DNA of 64,000 bases from assembly GCA_900315785.1 (NCBI GenBank), contig ONAL01000010.1, positions 4,437-68,436 on the forward strand, read 5' to 3'. The position numbers and the translations under genes are program-made. Positions within the stretch are counted from its first letter, which is position 1, and the number at the start of each line of letters is the position of its first letter. The stretch comes from an uncultured Eubacteriales bacterium (GTDB lineage Bacteria > Bacillota > Clostridia > Oscillospirales > Acutalibacteraceae). The notes beneath the pieces are model-generated. The model searched no databases, was not told the origin of the DNA, and worked only from the letters and a program-made list of their open reading frames with translations. Shown here piece after piece: positions 3,872-45,706 of this stretch.

Positions 3872-4888
3872 GTGGCTATGATTAAAGAAAGAGATTATTT
3901 GTGGGACAATATCAAGGCGCTGCTGATTTGCCTCGTCGTTACGGGACATTGTATCGAGGTCAGCGCGGTTCACCATTCGCTCACGAGAGCCGTCAATTAC
4001 TGGATTTATTCCTTCCATATGCCCGCGTTTATCTTTGTTTCGGGCTTCTGGGCTAAGAGCTACTGCAAAAACGGCAGAGTTCGGGCTGAAAAGCTCGCGA
4101 CGCTGATTTGCTATTACACGGCGTTTCAGATTCTGTTCTCGGTGCTCAAGCTGATTTTCAACATCAAAACGTCGAGTATCTCGTTCTTCTCGCCCGCAAG
4201 AGGTCTCTGGTACCTTCTGGCGATGATTTTCTTCTACCTGTTGGTGCCCCTGGCTGAAAGGCTCCCGTCGTATATAGTTCTTCCTGCGCTGATAACTCTC
4301 GGTGTGCTCATCGGAAAGGACAGGTCGCCGTCAAATTATCTTGCTCTGCTCAGGATTTTCAACTTCGCGCCCTATTTCTTTATGGGCTACTACCTCAGCA
4401 CCGATACGGTAAACAAGCTCCGCTCGCTGAAAGGCAGACTCAGGTATCCGCTCGGAGCGGCGCTCGTGGTGCTATCCTCCGCAATCTGGATTGTTCAGCG
4501 CAACACGTTCTCTCGTGAGATATTCTTCGGCAAGTTAACCTATCACAAAATTCACCTCGGTTTGCTTGAAGGAGCAGGTCTGAGGCTCCAGACCTACCTT
4601 ATCGCGGCAATTATGATAGCGGCGCTGCTGCTGGTTATGCCGTCGAAAAAGACAATCTTCTCGTTCGTCGGTAAAAATTCGCTGCAAATCTTCATTCTGC
4701 ATATGGCTCTTGTGATAATCCTTTTTGATTCCAAGCTCGTCCATACCGAGATAAACAGTAATCCTGAATTTGCCGTCGCGGTGTTCGCGGGCGCCGCTCT
4801 GACGATAATACTCGCGCTTCCCGTGTTCACATACCCGTTCAGGGCGATTTCACGCTTCAGCGAAAAGCTCTGCAAGCTCAAAAAGTAA
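3872..4888 (+). CDS. membrane acyltransferase, acyltransferase-3 family
   Basis: Polytopic hydrophobic ORF with family-typical N-terminus (WDNIKALLICLVVTGH); start GTG 3872 or ATG 3878. Confidence 0.75.
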   Translation: MAMIKERDYLWDNIKALLICLVVTGHCIEVSAVHHSLTRAVNYWIYSFHMPAFIFVSGFWAKSYCKNGRVRAEKLATLICYYTAFQILFSVLKLIFNIKTSSISFFSPARGLWYLLAMIFFYLLVPLAERLPSYIVLPALITLGVLIGKDRSPSNYLALLRIFNFAPYFFMGYYLSTDTVNKLRSLKGRLRYPLGAALVVLSSAIWIVQRNTFSREIFFGKLTYHKIHLGLLEGAGLRLQTYLIAAIMIAALLLVMPSKKTIFSFVGKNSLQIFILHMALVIILFDSKLVHTEINSNPEFAVAVFAGAALTIILALPVFTYPFRAISRFSEKLCKLKK

Positions 4889-4896
4889 CTCTTCAA

Positions 4897-4929
4897 GCCG
4901 TTATCCGTCAGGGTAACGGCTGAACTTTT
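4897..4929 (+). terminator. rho-independent terminator candidate
   Basis: GCCGTTAtCC-gtca-GGgTAACGGC followed by TGAACTTTT. Confidence 0.5.
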
Positions 4930-5077
4930 GCACAAAAAGTTTTAAAAATAATTTAATTTATTTATAGAAATATGACACCTTTTTAACCGCTTTGGTCATA
5001 ATCGGAATAAAAATTACAGCCAGCTGACAAAAGGTATACAAGATTACCAAATATAGGTTACAGTTTCCGAAAATCTA

Positions 5078-5265: not shown

Positions 5266-6570
5266 GTGTGTACGTTGGAAAAATTTGTAATTAACGGCGG
5301 CAAGGCGCTTGACGGTGAAGTGGTTATCAGCGGCGCCAAGAACGCGGCTGTGGCTATCATCCCCGCGGTTATCCTCTGCGATGAGCCCTGCCGAATTGAA
5401 AATATACCTAACATCAGCGACGTTGCCCTTATCGGCAGAATCCTTCAGGAAATGGGCGCTGAGGTTAAAAGAGTAAACAAGAGCACATTATACATCGACC
5501 CCAAGGGTATCGATACAGCAAGCGCGACTTCCGACCTCGTAAGAGGTATGCGTGCTTCCTATTATCTTTTAGGAGCGCTTCTCGGTCGTTGCCACGAAGC
5601 CAGAGTCTGCCTCCCGGGCGGCTGTAACTTCGGCGCTCGTCCTATCGATTTACACCTCAAGGGCTTTGCGGCTATGGGCGCAAGACACGAGCTCGTTAAC
5701 GGCGCAATCATCGATGTAAGGTCTCCCTATAAGCTTCGCGGAGCTCACATCTATCTTGATTTTGCTTCCGTCGGAGCTACAATCAACATTATGCTCGCGG
5801 CTGTAAAGGCTGAGGGTCAGACTGTTATCGAGAACGCGGCTAAGGAACCCCACATCGTTGACCTCGCAAACTTCCTCAACTCTATGGGCGCTCAGATTCG
5901 CGGCGCCGGTACCGATACAATCAAAATCCGCGGAGTAGACTTCCTCCACGGCGTTAACTATTCGATTATCCCCGACCAGATTGAGGCGGGTACTTATATG
6001 TGCGCTGCGGCTGCTACAAGAGGCAGAGTTCTCGTCAAGAACGTAACTCCCAAGCACCTCGAGAGCATCACCGCTAAGCTCAGAGAAATCGGCTGTGAGA
6101 TTAAGGAATTTGACGAGGCTGTTCTCGTTGACGCGACAAAGCGTCCCCTGAATCGCTGCAACATCAAGACCATGCCTCACCCGGGCTTCCCGACAGACTG
6201 TCAGCCCCAGTTCGCGGTTCTTCTCGCGACTGTTGACGGCACAAGCATCATCAACGAGAGCGTTTGGGACAACCGTTATCAGTATGTTTCAGAGCTCACT
6301 TTGATGAACGCTCACATCTCTGTTGAGGGCAGACTTGCCATCATCGAAGGCGGTTCAAGACTTACTGCCGCTCCCGTCAAGGCTACCGACCTTCGCGCGG
6401 GCGCCGCTATGATTATCGCGGGTCTCTGCGCTGACGGTACAACCGAGGTAAGCTCAATCCAGTATATCGAGAGAGGCTACGAGGATATCGTTGAAAAGCT
6501 CACAAATCTCGGCGCGGACATCAAGAAGGTTTACTACGAGGAAAGCCGCGACAGAAGCCTCAGAGCTTAA
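5266..6570 (+). CDS. murA: UDP-N-acetylglucosamine 1-carboxyvinyltransferase
   Basis: Full-length; GAKNAAV N-terminus and active-site Cys loop (LPGGCNFGARPIDLH); start GTG 5266 or TTG 5275. Confidence 0.95.
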   Translation: MCTLEKFVINGGKALDGEVVISGAKNAAVAIIPAVILCDEPCRIENIPNISDVALIGRILQEMGAEVKRVNKSTLYIDPKGIDTASATSDLVRGMRASYYLLGALLGRCHEARVCLPGGCNFGARPIDLHLKGFAAMGARHELVNGAIIDVRSPYKLRGAHIYLDFASVGATINIMLAAVKAEGQTVIENAAKEPHIVDLANFLNSMGAQIRGAGTDTIKIRGVDFLHGVNYSIIPDQIEAGTYMCAAAATRGRVLVKNVTPKHLESITAKLREIGCEIKEFDEAVLVDATKRPLNRCNIKTMPHPGFPTDCQPQFAVLLATVDGTSIINESVWDNRYQYVSELTLMNAHISVEGRLAIIEGGSRLTAAPVKATDLRAGAAMIIAGLCADGTTEVSSIQYIERGYEDIVEKLTNLGADIKKVYYEESRDRSLRA

Positions 6571-6586
6571 TACTATAAATATTATT

Positions 6587-6620
6587 GCCCCGAAGTTCGC
6601 TGAACTTTGGGGCTTTTGTA
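6587..6620 (+). terminator. rho-independent terminator of murA
   Basis: GCCCCGAAGTTC-gct-GAACTTTGGGGC followed by TTTTGTATTT. Confidence 0.8.
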
Positions 6621-6676
6621 TTTCATTTTATTAAAAGCTATGATATAATGAAATGAATGTGTAAAGGAGAGATACT

Positions 6677-42185: not shown

Positions 42186-42614
42186 ATGTCAACTTATATG
42201 GCTAAAAAAGGCGAAATCGATCGCAAGTGGTATGTAATCGACGCTGCGGGCAAGCCCCTCGGCCGAGTTGCCGCTCAGGCTGCCGTTCTCTTAAGAGGCA
42301 AGCACAAGACTACATTCACTCCCCATGTTGATTGCGGCGACCACGTAATCATCATCAACTGCAAGGACGCTGTTTTAACAGGCAACAAGCTCACTCAGAA
42401 GAAATGGCAGCGCCACACAGGCTACATCGGTCACTTAAAGGAAACACGTTACGATACTCTTATGGCTACACGCCCCACAAAGGCTATGGAGCTCGCAGTT
42501 AAGGGTATGATTCCTTCCAATACTATCGGCAGAAGCGCGCTTCTCAGACTTCGTCTGTTCGAGGGCGCTGAACACAACCACCAGGCTCAGAAGCCTGAGG
42601 CTGTAGAAGCTTAA
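42186..42614 (+). CDS. rplM: 50S ribosomal protein L13
   Basis: 142 aa; RKWYVIDA start and conserved L13 core. Confidence 0.97.
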   Translation: MSTYMAKKGEIDRKWYVIDAAGKPLGRVAAQAAVLLRGKHKTTFTPHVDCGDHVIIINCKDAVLTGNKLTQKKWQRHTGYIGHLKETRYDTLMATRPTKAMELAVKGMIPSNTIGRSALLRLRLFEGAEHNHQAQKPEAVEA

Positions 42615-42630
42615 GAAGGAGGAATAAATA

Positions 42631-43032
42631 ATGTACGATAAGGCACCTTATTTTTACGGCACAGGCAGAAGAAAGTCTTCTGTAGCTCGTGTAAGACTTT
42701 ACCAGGGTACAGGTAAGGTAACAATCAACGACAGAGATATCGACGATTACTTTGGTCTTGAGACACTCAAGTTAATCGTTCGCCAGCCCCTCGAGCTCAC
42801 CGAAACAGGCGAGAAGTTCGACGTTGTTTGTCGCGTAAACGGCGGCGGCGTTACAGGTCAGGCAGGCGCAATCCGTCACGGTATCGCAAGAGCTCTCCTT
42901 CAGTATGACAGCGACGCACTCCGTCACGCTCTCAAGAAGGCAGGCTTCCTCACTCGTGACCCGAGAATGAAGGAAAGAAAGAAGTACGGTCTCAAAGCCG
43001 CTCGTCGCGCTCCCCAGTTCTCGAAGAGATAA
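42631..43032 (+). CDS. rpsI: 30S ribosomal protein S9
   Basis: 133 aa; GTGRRK N-terminal region and C-terminal PQFSKR. Confidence 0.97.
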
Positions 43033-43089
43033 TCACATACTTTGGTTATTTATCAGACCTTCCGTTTTTTCGGGAGGTCTGTTCTTTTT
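42993..43089 (+). repeat. copy 1 (functional) of the rpsI 3' end plus terminator module
   Basis: CAAAGCCGC...AGTTCTCGAAGAGATAA, 23 nt, then CAGACCTTCCG-tttttt-CGGGAGGTCTG and TTCTTTTT; this is the rpsI terminator. Confidence 0.9.
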
Positions 43090-43111
43090 GACCACTGAGG
43101 CGTCCTCGGAG

Positions 43112-43195
43112 CAAAGCCGCGACAGTGCTCCAAGAGATAAAAGTTATATTTGTATTTTTTTCAAGGCTTCCGATTGTTGAGAGCCTTGCTTTTTA
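43112..43195 (+). repeat. copy 2 (decayed) of the rpsI 3' end plus terminator module
   Basis: Collinear CAAAGCCGC (9/9), GCTCC, a 10-nt gap, AAGAGATAA (9/9), T-rich spacer, CTTCCGATT inside a re-paired hairpin CAAGGCT/AGCCTTG, then CTTTTT. Confidence 0.7.
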
Positions 43196-43240
43196 TTGAT
43201 CATATTTCTCAAAAAACTTTGTAGTATTTGTCAAAAAACC

Positions 43241-43269
43241 TTGACATTCTGTTAATCGACCAGTATAAT
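43241..43269 (+). promoter_or_regulatory. consensus sigma-A promoter of the islet operon
   Basis: TTGACA, 17-nt spacer, TATAAT, 55 nt upstream of the ATG at 43325. Confidence 0.7.
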
Positions 43270-43324
43270 GTAATGATTTAGATTTAAGTCTAATTGGACG
43301 GATGTGGGCAGAAAGGAGAGTACA

Positions 43325-43981
43325 ATGTATCATTATATCGAAGATAAGGAATATATTCATAAAATGCGTATGCTTTGCGGCGAGGTAATGCAAGGGCTAT
43401 GCCACTGCCTGAAAGAAAATTATGATATCGGAGCTGTGTTTTACTTGGTTGGTAGTGGCGCAAGAAATCTGATTCTTCAAAACGCGGATAAACCTGTTGA
43501 TCTAGATTATAATTTAGAAATTATTAAATGTGAGGATTTTGAAGATTGCCGACATATCAATGATTGTATTCAAAAGTCATTTAATAAAATCCTGCGTGAA
43601 TATTGTTTATCTGACTGTCAAAACTCCACGTCATCGCTCGCTTCTGGAAGAATATATTTTACAAATGGAAATCAAACAGAGTTTTCAATGGATGTTTGTA
43701 TTACATGTAAGGATAATAATGGGAGCTACTATCGTTTGATATGCAAGAAGACAGGTTTTGTGTTCAATGATGAATACTATTGGAACATAGCACCTAAATC
43801 AAAAGAGTTAAAGAAAAGAGCGGATTATATCAAAAAAAGCGGGAAATGGCAATTAGTTCGTCAGCAGTATCTCAAAATAAAAAACAATTATTTGAAACGA
43901 AATGATACAAAAAACCACCCGTCTTTTATTTGTTATATTGAAGCCGTAAACAATGTGTATAATTCAAGGAAACATTGGTAA
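43325..43981 (+). CDS. minimal Pol-beta-superfamily nucleotidyltransferase (218 aa), subfamily unresolved (SMODS/CD-NTase-like by motif spacing)
   Basis: GAAAGGAGAG RBS; G43-S44, 14 residues, D59-L-D61, third acidic residue in FSMD123VCI about 60 residues later; AT-rich codon usage unlike its neighbours. Confidence 0.5.
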   Translation: MYHYIEDKEYIHKMRMLCGEVMQGLCHCLKENYDIGAVFYLVGSGARNLILQNADKPVDLDYNLEIIKCEDFEDCRHINDCIQKSFNKILREYCLSDCQNSTSSLASGRIYFTNGNQTEFSMDVCITCKDNNGSYYRLICKKTGFVFNDEYYWNIAPKSKELKKRADYIKKSGKWQLVRQQYLKIKNNYLKRNDTKNHPSFICYIEAVNNVYNSRKHW

Positions 43982-43995
43982 GAAGGAGGTTAACA

Positions 43996-44676
43996 ATGTA
44001 TTGTAGGAATTGCGGAAGCAAAATTGATGACAATTCAACATACTGTACTCGTTGCGGTGCGAGGATTGATGATATTGTACATCCTAATGATTCCGATGAA
44101 GGTTCAAGTGTTTGGTTTGCTGTTTTAGGATTTTTTATTCCGATTGTAGGGTTTATTTTGTTCCTAGTTTATGAAGGAAAGAAGCCCAAGAGGGCAAAAG
44201 CTGCGGGTAAAGGAGCGTTGATTGGTTTTATAACTAAAATTGCTGTATCAATTATTCTTACGATTTTATATGTTATTTTTGCATCGTCGATATTTAATAC
44301 AATTGTTAACGTAAATGATATAACAGTCCCTAACATCAGTAGTATTTTCCAAGAAGAGAGTACAGATGAAATCCTGAAGAATTATATAGATGTTAGTTTT
44401 GGTGAGTTTAGGGTTTCGGGAGATAAGTATTTGCCTGAAACATCGCTTGATGTTACAGTAAAAAACAAATCGAAAAAACAGTTAAGCTTTTACATAACAA
44501 TAGAAGCAGTGGATAAAACAGGAAAAAGAATAGGGACGGATGAGGTTAACGTTGAGGATTTGAATCCGAGACAGAATGTAACGCTAACAGCTTTTGAATT
44601 TGTAGATGAAGAGATGATACCGAAACTGGAAAAGGCAACATTTCAAGTGTTAAAAGCTGAAAAGTTTGATTATTAG
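43996..44676 (+). CDS. zinc-ribbon protein with two hydrophobic segments and a C-terminal beta-rich domain
   Basis: GAAGGAGG RBS; CRNCG...CTRCG ribbon; VWFAVLGFFIPIVGFILFLVY, KKPKRAKAAGKG, ALIGFITKIAVSIILTILYVIF; soluble tail of about 120 aa; 14 nt after the NTase stop. Confidence 0.7.
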   Translation: MYCRNCGSKIDDNSTYCTRCGARIDDIVHPNDSDEGSSVWFAVLGFFIPIVGFILFLVYEGKKPKRAKAAGKGALIGFITKIAVSIILTILYVIFASSIFNTIVNVNDITVPNISSIFQEESTDEILKNYIDVSFGEFRVSGDKYLPETSLDVTVKNKSKKQLSFYITIEAVDKTGKRIGTDEVNVEDLNPRQNVTLTAFEFVDEEMIPKLEKATFQVLKAEKFDY

Positions 44677-44748
44677 GTTTTGTGAGTTGCTGTGAGATTC
44701 TTTCCGTACACAACACACAAGAAACAAAACAACGCAAAAGCCCTGTAA

Positions 44749-44845
44749 ACAAGCCAACTTTAGCGTTTGAAAAGTTCTCAAAGAGATAATATTTTCTTTA
44801 TGTTTTCTGCAAACCTTCCGATTATTCGGGAGGTTTGTTTTTGTT
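44749..44845 (+). repeat. copy 3 (decayed) of the rpsI 3' end plus terminator module; acts as terminator of the islet operon
   Basis: AGTTCTCaAAGAGATAAT is 17/18 identical to the rpsI end; hairpin CAAACCTTCCG-attatt-CGGGAGGTTTG has identical 8-nt cores and a compensatory G:C to A:T change; then TTTTTGTT. Confidence 0.8.
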
Positions 44846-44945
44846 GAAAAATCGTTTGCGTTATGCCAGACTGGCAGTGTAAGGGAGTGATTGATAATGA
44901 GCTGCAAATCCGAAATTGAATCGCCGCGCAAAAGAGCGGCTTTGA

Positions 44946-45026
44946 ACGGTATTTAAGCTGATTGCGATTATTGCAATGACGGTAGACCACCTGACCTGGC
45001 TTTTTATCGGGAACACAGGCGATTGA
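44946..45026 (+). pseudogene. possible relic of a TraX-family acyltransferase N-terminus
   Basis: Short open frame ..FKLIAIIAMTVDHLTWLFIGNTGD-stop resembles the LKxIAxxxMxxDHxxW start of TraX proteins; stop codons on both sides, no RBS. Confidence 0.3.
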
Positions 45027-45250
45027 TTTTGTATTCCGGACGTTTATTTACGCCTTGCGGTTCACGGAATTATTCCGATAATTATGTGACCGTATAGTTT
45101 TAAGGCTCCTTTGTACAATCTGCATAAATAACAGCCCTGATTTTTGGATAGTAAAATCAATGGTTTTATGGTACAATTAAAATGTGGGAAAGGTTATTCC
45201 CGCGAAGGCAAAAGCCTTTTGGCTCTATTATCTGAAAAGGAGTGCTATTT

Positions 45251-45613
45251 ATGAAAAAGTTTTTGAGAGTTATTGCGGTTGTAATGGCTATGTCGCTCTT
45301 GGTTCTGACCTTCGGCGCCTGCGGCTCGTCGGGCGGCTCGGACACCTCCTCAAAGGCTGAGGAAAAAACAGGAATCATCGGCAGCTGGGAGTATGAGACA
45401 GGCGGTTACACCTATACCTTTAACGATGACGGCACAGGCTCATACGCTGTAGGCGAAAACAAGATGGAATTCACCTACAAGGACAACGGCAAGGCTGTAG
45501 AAATCCTCTACACAGGCAACACTGACGCGAGCACATATGAGTACAAAATCGACGGCGATATGCTCATCATCAAGGATAGTCTCGGCAATGATGTTAAGTA
45601 CAAGAAGAAGTAA
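45251..45613 (+). CDS. small lipoprotein (lipocalin-like/DUF5640-like)
   Basis: Signal peptide with lipobox LTFGAC; IIGSWEYETGGYTYTFNDDGTGSY pattern. Confidence 0.7.
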   Translation: MKKFLRVIAVVMAMSLLVLTFGACGSSGGSDTSSKAEEKTGIIGSWEYETGGYTYTFNDDGTGSYAVGENKMEFTYKDNGKAVEILYTGNTDASTYEYKIDGDMLIIKDSLGNDVKYKKK

Positions 45614-45657
45614 TTAATCAAAGGTTATTTGGTATTGAAAAAATAGGAAACTCAGCT

Positions 45658-45694
45658 CGGGAGCGGTTCATACCGCTCCCGTTCGTTGTTTTCG
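45658..45694 (+). terminator. rho-independent terminator
   Basis: CGGGAGCGGT-tcat-ACCGCTCCCG followed by TTCGTTGTTTTCG. Confidence 0.8.
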
Positions 45695-45706
45695 TTCTAT
45701 TTTTAA

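Follow-up and report, generated by a model that had tools for sequence, protein, structure and literature searches.

Introduction

The closest described counterparts of the locus analysed here couple a nucleotidyltransferase (NTase) or another nucleotide synthase to a partner protein. In type I CBASS (antiphage signalling that is based on cyclic oligonucleotides), CdnE, for example, is paired with Cap15, a beta-barrel protein with two transmembrane segments (2-TM; Pfam SMODS and S_2TMBeta). In Hailong, the product of a constitutive NTase (HalB) restrains the membrane ion channel effector HalA (PMC13434031). In Panoptes, a minimal synthase with a Cas10-palm-like fold (OptS) is combined with the 2TM-beta effector OptE, and the system uses a constitutive decoy signal and behaves like a toxin-antitoxin pair (PMC13434031). 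MntA-HepT relies on a small Pol-beta NTase as a constitutive controller of a toxic partner. Here we analyse a two-gene islet, genes A and B, within a 64,000-nucleotide stretch of DNA (hereafter the window, to which all positions refer) from an uncultured Eubacteriales bacterium of the Acutalibacteraceae (GenBank assembly GCA_900315785.1, contig ONAL01000010.1, positions 4,437 to 68,436 of the forward strand). Gene A encodes a Pol-beta-type NTase of an unannotated family and gene B a zinc-ribbon protein with two hydrophobic helices. We tentatively interpret the pair as a mobile-element conflict module, in which a constitutively expressed enzyme resembling the nucleotidyltransferases of the cGAS/DncV-like type (CD-NTases) has an optional membrane partner.

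The islet resembles type I CBASS in that a Pol-beta NTase gene is followed by one for a small, beta-rich, 2-TM protein, and in its carriage on mobile DNA. It differs in that A is ~70-100 aa shorter than typical CD-NTases (the initial annotation of this sequence had called it much shorter) and matches no SMODS, CD-NTase or PADLOC profile; that B has a zinc ribbon and an immunoglobulin (Ig)-like sandwich rather than the Cap15 barrel, and no S_2TMBeta match; and that A is mostly found without an effector and is built for constitutive expression. Neither profile nor fold matches revealed a SAVED, STING, Cap15/S_2TMBeta, patatin or endonuclease effector feature in B. The parallel with CBASS and SMODS systems drawn in the initial annotation is not supported at the profile level: neither protein matches a CBASS, SMODS or PADLOC model.

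Hailong likewise combines an NTase with a membrane protein, and the constitutive promoter of A and the rarity of B without a controller would fit its logic. However, HalB and HalA are not among the top 50 PDB folds of A or B (library to April 2026), a rank below which weaker similarity could lie, no channel with a cytoplasmic crown is predicted for B, and B persists beside truncated A. The conserved C-terminal tyrosine of A (Y212) is phenylalanine in several family members, and Hailong-type tyrosine-primed synthesis is therefore not indicated. Panoptes shares the combination of a minimal nucleotide synthase and a 2-TM beta-rich partner, but OptS has a Cas10/GGDEF palm fold in contrast to the Pol-beta fold of A, and B matches no 2TM-beta model. 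MntA-HepT is similar in using a small Pol-beta NTase as constitutive controller, in the commonness of solo NTases, and through one fusion of an A-family protein to a PIN domain; it is unlike the present pair in that B is a membrane protein without a HEPN domain, A has 218 aa compared with ~100-140 aa and a CD-NTase-like fold, and PADLOC returned no match. As a vehicle, the closest relatives are the Tn4451/Tn4453 transposons: in 63-70%-identical relatives, A, B and in some cases a small open reading frame (ORF) lie between the mobilisation genes and TnpV, while the window copy lacks transposon genes and sits between repeats of the rpsI 3' end; a further difference is that the relaxase is of the PF03432 type and has a NikA-like partner. 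On the features compared (profiles and effector for CBASS, synthase fold for Panoptes, profiles and fold rank for ANT/Lnu, partner for MNT-HEPN), the A-B pair is not a member of these systems, nor is it a demonstrated member of Hailong. It resembles the broad class of NTases with a membrane partner on mobile DNA and differs from it in its small unannotated enzyme, its different partner, its optional pairing and its own leader.

Results

A consensus promoter precedes two adjacent genes

The core of the islet consists of four features, all on the + strand:

43241..43269 (+): sigma-70-type consensus promoter, TTGACA-17-TATAAT, a 12/12 match, with an A-rich tract before it
43276..43318 (+): conserved 5' leader of gene A (alignment of 44 leaders, covariation, RNAalifold, covariance model R1)
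43325..43981 (+): gene A, Pol-beta-superfamily NTase-like protein of an unannotated family (ORF, homologues, conserved motifs, AlphaFold, Foldseek)
43996..44676 (+): gene B, CxxC...CxxC zinc ribbon, two hydrophobic helices and a C-terminal beta-sandwich (Pfam Zn_Ribbon_1, AlphaFold)

The promoter (TTGACA at 43241-43246, 17 nt, TATAAT at 43264-43269) is the sole 12/12 match within 42600-45700. Gene A (218 aa) starts with ATG at 43325 behind the ribosome-binding site AAAGGAG and ends with a stop codon at 43979-43981; gene B (226 aa) starts with ATG 14 nt beyond that stop and has the ribosome-binding site GAAGGAGG. A terminator scan placed no terminator in the gap between the two genes and one 3' of B. 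The promoter, length of A, motifs, 14-nt gap and features of B listed in the initial annotation were all found as it had described them.

Gene A belongs to an unannotated family with Pol-beta NTase motifs

The protein carries the motifs G43-S44-G45, D59-L-D61 and D123 (within FSMDVCI). A search of a 5.8-billion-protein database returned 1260 homologues of A (90% clustering), none with a Pfam domain, and a profile search returned 763 representatives at 50% clustering whose only name is 'hypothetical protein'. A itself has no match in Pfam, NCBIfam, PADLOC or PHROGs, the first three searched to E<=10. When 56 diverse members were compared with Pfam at E<=1, no recurrent family emerged, and the single matches to Polbeta, MTPAP-like and DUF294 were sub-threshold; a sequence search of A and two family profiles against all PDB chains gave noise only (E>0.4).

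All 47 close homologues compared keep G43-S44, D59-x-D61 and D123 unchanged. Among the 56 diverse members (to ~30% identity), G43 and D61 are invariant, and S44, N53, D59, N63, S101, D123, R137, K142, W153, K186, N187 and S200 are at least 90% conserved. This set of polar residues is what would be expected of an active Pol-beta-type NTase, and the motifs, whose conservation across the family rules out chance, bear out the earlier assignment of A to that type. The GS...[DE]x[DE]...[DE] signature is common to all Pol-beta NTases and is necessary, but not sufficient, for a CD-NTase.

A second subfamily, A', is 24% identical to A, keeps GS...FDFD...DST...CDF and matches the A family profile at E=1e-38. 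It comprises 1713 clusters, all unnamed, and has no match in PADLOC, NCBIfam or PHROGs. C-terminal extensions were found in P0225 (351 aa), P0226/P0261 (354-373 aa) and P0163/P0186 (300-304 aa); one of them is a PIN7 nuclease domain fused to an A-family member (E=6e-16), and two further conserved extensions match no known family.

The predicted fold of A is nearest to bacterial CD-NTases

An AlphaFold2 model of A was built from 47 sequences; the best model reached a predicted local distance difference test score (pLDDT) of 81 and a predicted template-modelling (TM) score of 0.78, and the other four 47-59 (pLDDT). The model comprises a long N-terminal helix, the beta-alpha-beta core of an NTase, an extended sheet and, at the C-terminus, three helices. 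Foldseek comparison with the PDB placed bacterial CD-NTases in all of the top 24 positions (E 2e-5 to 1e-3, TM score 0.40-0.48), led by ClCdnE (E=2.3e-5), EmCdnE, BfCdnB, PaCdnD, DwCdnB, BdCdnG and EcCdnC and followed by cGAS, OAS1/2, DncV and Pol beta. The top 50 matches included no ANT, Lnu, KNTase, MNT or AbiEii/MenT protein. A comparison with the viral folds of BFVD was uninformative (one giant-virus hypothetical protein and generic NTase/LicD matches). The proximity to cGAS/DncV-type enzymes proposed in the initial annotation from motif spacing gains support from the predicted fold, which is nearest to CD-NTases, OAS and cGAS. CD-NTase-like, a label based on a moderately reliable predicted structure and on generic motifs, is the best-supported placement of A, but it falls short of family membership.

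Gene B encodes a zinc-ribbon protein with a predicted beta-sandwich

The zinc ribbon of B (C3xxC6...C17xxC20, residues 1-23) matches Pfam Zn_Ribbon_1 (E=5e-8, 32.9 bits, cut-off 25). It is followed by hydrophobic helices at ~37-61 and 70-108 around a Lys-rich loop, EGKKPKRAKAAGKG. The AlphaFold model of B has a pLDDT of 78, exceeding 90 in a seven-strand beta-sandwich (131-224) that was matched by generic Ig-like domains only (ApaG, DUF1425, the luminal domain of TMEM106B and IrmA). Apart from zinc-ribbon models and the NCBIfam model FxLYD_dom (19.3 bits, under the cut-off of 23), searches of Pfam, PADLOC, NCBIfam and PHROGs gave matches of unknown function only and no known nucleotide sensor; fold matches agreed with the profile searches on this point, as had the initial annotation. 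The 744 homologues of B are named 'zinc-ribbon domain-containing protein'. The ratio of non-synonymous to synonymous substitution rates (dN/dS) is 0.06-0.2 among transposon-borne copies, indicating that B is a real, constrained protein.

A and B are associated strongly from the side of B and loosely from the side of A

In a species-level sample (one genome per species, GTDB), A is encoded in 188 of 185,579 species, all of them gut or rumen Firmicutes. From this sample 80 loci with A were retrieved, and B lies beside A in ~10. Loci with B were collected by exact look-up (12) and from a metagenome scan (48); ~49 of these were informative, and the rest lacked upstream sequence. Directly 5' of B we found A in ~12 loci and A' in ~29 (in two of these, the unrelated 362-aa protein P362 together with A'), i.e. 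an A-family gene in ~41 of ~49. P362 alone occupied this position in ~6 loci and a truncated A or A' in 2. The A/A'-B spacing is tight (14-23 nt), and neither a promoter nor a terminator lies between the two genes. Seen from B, the association is thus strong and old; seen from A, it is loose. Such asymmetric pairing, though not absolute here, is the pattern shown by toxin/antitoxin-like or guard systems. Simple co-location of two unrelated genes, which the initial annotation had offered as an alternative, is unlikely given that an A-family gene precedes B in most informative loci even at 24% identity; its proposal of a two-gene system stands as regards the association seen from B and does not stand as an obligate pairing.

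A, B, the small ORF and P362 are found in every combination. Other partners of A are a second zinc-ribbon membrane protein, unrelated to B (a double-zinc-ribbon protein with a TM segment, 257 aa), the small acidic ORF alone, and a DUF4320 protein, so that 'A plus zinc-ribbon membrane protein' is a recurring theme. The double-zinc-ribbon protein has a Lys-rich segment, one TM segment and a helical outer domain of ~150 aa, and is encoded near serine recombinase genes (L025:5062-5835, L155:6666-7436).

The small, very acidic ORF (59-68 aa; MGKHFFDFEDGDFAHSISDNMAIDSDGDLL...DEDDD, with repeated DNMAIDxDG(D/E)L) lies 3' of B in nearly all transposon copies and directly 3' of A where B is absent (for positions see L003:6371-6577, L095:4696-4875, L028:6648-6839 and L074:6729-6926). 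It has no Pfam or PHROG match; its product could act by mimicking DNA, or as an inhibitor or substrate. P362-type proteins (362-368 aa, N-terminal helix-turn-helix (HTH)-like region, weak PHROG repressor matches) replace A or precede A' (L095:2901-3989, L143:2216-3322), and a perfect palindrome in their own promoter region, AGACAACAAAAGTTGTCT, is a probable auto-operator. A comparison with the A family ruled out that P362 is a hidden member of it; the protein looks like an HTH regulator.

A-family genes share a promoter and a structured leader

The same consensus promoter is present at a fixed distance 5' of A-family genes in most of 70 distinct upstream regions, a recurrence that speaks against chance. 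It is followed by a leader of ~50 nt with the form GAUUUAG-loop-CUAAAUGG-NN-GG-N-UUGGG, then GAAAGGAG and ATG, in which the G-rich box is invariant. In the window, the leader consists of a hairpin at 43276-43295 (AUUUAGAU / GUCUAAUU), the G-rich box at 43296-43308 (GGACGGAUGUGGG) and the Shine-Dalgarno sequence AAAGGAG at 43312-43318. Promoter and leader are present in all contexts found, unrelated ones included, and also 5' of A' genes. The leader contains no leader peptide.

Alignment of 44 leaders showed the hairpin to be 94% paired, with 19 cells changed on both sides (e.g. UUUUGG/CCAAAA and UUUAAC/GUUAAA), and RNAalifold returned the same helix. None of 500 shuffles reached this covariation, and slid controls were 18-45% paired. 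A covariance model of the leader (R1) gave a single match in the window (43265-43327, 60.8 bits) and, in 592 kb of loci, matched only directly 5' of A or A' genes (e.g. L065:5939-6003, L129:3257-3321). Rfam 15 at E<=10 gave noise only. The leader is thus a candidate new cis-regulatory RNA; it possibly acts as a 5'-terminal stabiliser with a translation enhancer, as a binding site for A or another protein, or as a small ligand sensor.

We also considered the leader palindrome as a double-stranded DNA operator and rejected this as the principal interpretation: nine sequences have a U-G pair, which on the other strand would be C-A, and sense-strand RNA structure is therefore favoured. One pair of the hairpin, U-A in 41 of the 44 sequences, is mismatched (U-U) in the window.

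A is carried by mobilisable transposons and conjugative elements

For a 65%-identical A (P0051, present in 254 collection blocks), eight loci at different chromosomal sites have a transposon order. The order is a large serine recombinase, TnpW, a relaxase, a NikA-like protein, the divergently oriented A, B and acidic ORF, and TnpV. The recombinase is TnpX-like (Resolvase, Recombinase, Zn_ribbon_recom and DUF4368). The P0051 element is thus a mobilisable transposon of the Tn4451/Tn4453 type, with A, B and the small ORF in its cargo slot. TnpX-like recombinase, TnpV, TnpW and mobilisation protein genes surround the homologues in L001-L008 and L062-L067.

Other than transposon cargo, the commonest context of A is the conjugation operon (type IV secretion system, T4SS) of integrative and conjugative elements (ICEs). 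This operon begins with a relaxase, DUF3801, a type IV coupling protein, a VirB2-like protein, in some cases an MT-A70 methylase, and a TrbL_2/VirB6-like protein, and continues after A with PrgI, VirB4, DUF6075, a sortase and a lysozyme/CHAP protein. A is found before PrgI in some ICEs and after it in others, and has its own terminator hairpin behind it; the varying position and the terminator indicate that A in ICEs is an inserted, self-contained cassette. In L159-L163 an orphan MT-A70 DNA methyltransferase (4533-5015) is encoded near A (6001-6657), between pilin-like and VirB6-like genes. The segment of the operon around MT-A70 and A seems to be a hotspot of accessory, anti-restriction-type cassettes.

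We found no copy of A on 72,556 plasmids, two weak matches in phage records and ten loci in IMG/VR, which argues that A is not a plasmid or phage gene family. Bare islets of A+B or A'+B occur at several chromosomal sites, with A'+B and A'+B-remnant+small-ORF islets lying between housekeeping genes. A sister A+B islet lies after rplS (L101).

The window islet is a bare copy flanked by repeats of the rpsI 3' end

The G+C content is 0.32-0.36 over 43200-44800 compared with ~0.50 in the flanks, and the drop starts near 43124-43200. The neighbours on both sides are housekeeping genes: ROK kinase, rplM and rpsI on the 5' side (the rpsI ORF is 42631-43032, with Pfam Ribosomal_S9 in identical loci), and on the 3' side a DUF5640 lipoprotein gene and asnB. 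A repeat unit, the last ~18 nt of rpsI with its terminator, brackets the islet in three degenerate direct copies:

43016..43091 (+): rpsI 3' end and its intrinsic terminator (stem-loop 43054-43081), repeat copy 1 (direct-repeat families D1 and D2; terminator scan)
43124..43200 (+): degenerate copy 2 of the rpsI-3'-end and terminator unit, AGTGCTCCAAGAGATAAA ... hairpin CAAGGCTTCCGATTGTTGAGAGCCTTG and a T-run (repeat families D2 and D6); the islet's probable left junction
44773..44847 (+): copy 3 of the unit (terminator 44809-44838), right islet junction and terminator of the A-B operon (families D1, D2 and D6)

Window DNA is 68% identical to the transposon cargo over 43264-44681, i.e. the promoter-proximal region, A and B only. 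No remnant of TnpV or of the small acidic ORF turned up when the window was searched 3' of B, and the islet has no recombinase, relaxase or transfer genes. Tn4451-type genes are absent both from the window and from the identical loci L009-L014, leaving the window with the cargo alone. The best reading is that the islet is a bare copy of a mobile-element cargo cassette. Elements that integrate site-specifically into the rpsI 3' end are known in streptococci. The three repeats look like attachment-site remnants, and we infer that they are the footprint of an integration into the rpsI 3' end followed by decay.

The nearest genomes are metagenome-assembled genomes of uncultured Ruminococcus from ruminants (A identity 89-96%), and the intact A+B arrangement recurs at 89-100% identity in many samples. 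In a second species whose rplM-rpsI region is 79% identical, the islet DNA is 98.4% identical (L107:3600-4850 versus window 43808-44842), the homology stopping at 44842. There A has been cut to its last ~57 codons and the promoter lost, while the B protein is 100% identical. The higher identity of the islet than of rplM-rpsI and the truncation of A indicate recent transfer between species and ongoing decay. Together with the low G+C content, the near-identical islet corroborates the horizontal acquisition suggested in the initial annotation. In L016 the start codon of A is GTG, not ATG.

Discussion

A model for the cassette and the evidence that weighs against it

We tentatively favour a model, to which we would give somewhat less than an even chance, in which A and B form a mobile-element conflict module made up of a constitutive CD-NTase-like enzyme and an optional membrane partner. 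According to the model, A would be expressed constitutively from its own consensus promoter through the structured leader, and would either make a nucleotide-derived product (an oligonucleotide or a cyclic nucleotide) or nucleotidylate a partner. B, co-transcribed with A, would serve as its optional membrane partner or effector, restrained or informed by what A does, and the transposons, ICEs and chromosomes carrying the cassette would use it in conflict between genomes (defence, exclusion or addiction). Here we infer the enzymatic activity and product of A, the coupling of A to B and the biological role. By analogy, the guard or addiction logic of such a pair would stand closer to Hailong and Panoptes than to inducible CBASS. 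A more specific version, in which A is a new, minimal CD-NTase-like branch whose constitutive nucleotide signal restrains B in paired loci as a guard or addiction-type immune module spread by transposons and ICEs in gut Clostridia, solo ICE copies act as a 'jammer' (anti-addiction or anti-defence) and the leader senses the enzyme or its product, is unlikely as a whole.

Several observations weigh against the conflict-module model. For A, only one of the five structural models was confident, the fold match is moderate (query-normalised TM score 0.40-0.53, below 0.55), and no CD-NTase, SMODS, CBASS or other defence-family profile matches A or B. An hhalign comparison of the A family with Vibrio cholerae DncV gave a probability of 0.3%, a weak test in that DncV alone was compared (the DncV query sequence matched PDB entries 4U03/5GO3 at 946-975 bits). 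For B, the effectors Cap15, HalA and OptE are absent from the 50 best fold matches. The loop between the helices contains six Lys/Arg residues and acidic stretches lie on the outer side of both helices; the positive-inside rule accordingly predicts that the loop is cytoplasmic and that the ribbon and beta-sandwich are outside the cell, where the sandwich could not sense a cytoplasmic nucleotide. An extracytoplasmic zinc ribbon is unusual, and the topology, which bears on the mechanism, is therefore a tentative prediction.

The genetic linkage and the selection on the islet lineage add to these points. A stands alone in ~70 of the 80 species-level loci, showing that its function does not need B, and copies of B survive beside a 5'-truncated A (L107) or an A' remnant (L108) as well as behind P362 alone, showing that B is not strictly dependent on A. 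Finally, dN/dS in the Ruminococcus islet lineage is 0.38-0.91 for A and 0.53-0.91 for B (L015-L017), imprecise values since they rest on 2-27 substitutions, whereas it is 0.05-0.2 in transposon lineages. By this comparison of sequences, the window copy may be under relaxed selection.

Alternative explanations

The most credible alternative, although still on the unlikely side, is that A is a stand-alone establishment or anti-defence enzyme of conjugative and mobilisable elements, and that B is independent cargo sharing its slot and transcript. A could then consume, mimic or jam nucleotide immune signals, or modify incoming DNA or a host factor, and B could be, for example, an envelope, exclusion or receptor-masking protein. 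The solo occurrence of A in most loci would fit, as would its organisation as a promoter-leader-ORF-terminator cassette at varying positions of the ICE T4SS operon, where it adjoins an orphan MT-A70 methylase, typical anti-restriction cargo. In the Tn4451-like element, the presumed origin of transfer lies between A and the divergently oriented nikA-relaxase operon, which puts A in a leading-region position (for the leading-region concept see PMC11541004), but in ICEs A is not in the leading region. Moreover, bare A+B islets are kept in chromosomes without transfer genes, which argues for a host-beneficial rather than a transfer function. The independence of B would be consistent with the free combination of A, B, the small ORF and P362 and with the predicted location of its folded domains outside the cell. 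It is difficult to reconcile with an A-family gene 5' of B in ~41 of 49 loci when A is present in 188 of 185,579 species genomes, an enrichment that spans two 24%-identical subfamilies with 14-23 nt spacing and no internal promoter or terminator.

It is also possible, though we consider it quite unlikely, that the window islet is a decaying mobile-element remnant, a cis-mobilisable leftover at the rpsI 3' end that is functionless here; this would be compatible with the other explanations. The islet lacks a recombinase, relaxase, TnpV and small acidic ORF and is flanked by degenerate rpsI-end repeats, dN/dS is 0.4-0.9 in the Ruminococcus lineage, the sister islet has lost the 5' two-thirds of A, and the window leader hairpin contains the U-U mismatch. 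Nevertheless the promoter, the two ORFs with their ribosome-binding sites, and the terminator are undamaged, many samples contain this intact arrangement at 89-100% identity, and the dN/dS values are imprecise.

Decidedly improbable is a third explanation, that A is an MntA-like antitoxin that nucleotidylates or AMPylates a toxic partner (B, the small acidic protein or the fused PIN nuclease) within an addiction or abortive-infection module. It would account for the finding that the putative toxin B is rarely without a controller and the putative antitoxin A often alone, for the PIN7 fusion, for constitutive expression of A as judged from its promoter, and for carriage on mobile elements. Yet A is roughly twice as large as MNT antitoxins, and in the fold ranking it stands with CD-NTases rather than MNTs; B has no HEPN or other known toxin domain and survives with truncated A.

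Classical Tn4451 cargo is a resistance gene, in the catP slot. That A is an antibiotic or small-molecule nucleotidyltransferase (ANT/Lnu-like) in this slot with B unrelated, an alternative also raised in the initial annotation, is very improbable: the cargo position in a Tn4451-family transposon, the strong constitutive promoter and a length of 218 aa, within the ANT/Lnu range, would suit it, but NCBIfam including its resistance-gene models gave nothing at E<=10, no ANT, Lnu or KNTase fold ranked in the top 50 though several are in the PDB, none of the 72,556 plasmids carries a copy, and the family, whose dedicated leader contains no leader peptide, shows deep divergence and a consistent link to membrane partners.

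Significance

If A is an active signalling NTase, as the conflict-module model would have it, the family would extend the cGAS/CD-NTase world as a much smaller form of the enzyme. Its clusters at 90% identity number in the thousands and have no profile in Pfam, NCBIfam, PADLOC or PHROGs, and it occupies a niche, that of ICEs, mobilisable transposons and the anaerobic Clostridia of gut and rumen, which is poorly covered by current defence catalogues. The asymmetric pairing of A and B predicts constitutive inhibitory signalling or addiction, comparable with Hailong and Panoptes. The leader, specific to the A gene family and not in Rfam, is a separate candidate for a new regulatory RNA. Beyond the scope of the initial annotation, the analysis has added the mobile-element cargo context (Tn4451-like transposon and ICE), the conserved leader and the flanking rpsI-end repeats. 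Even should the least exciting reading hold, the cassette is of use, as it marks the slots for accessory genes of Tn4451-like elements and Firmicute T4SS operons.

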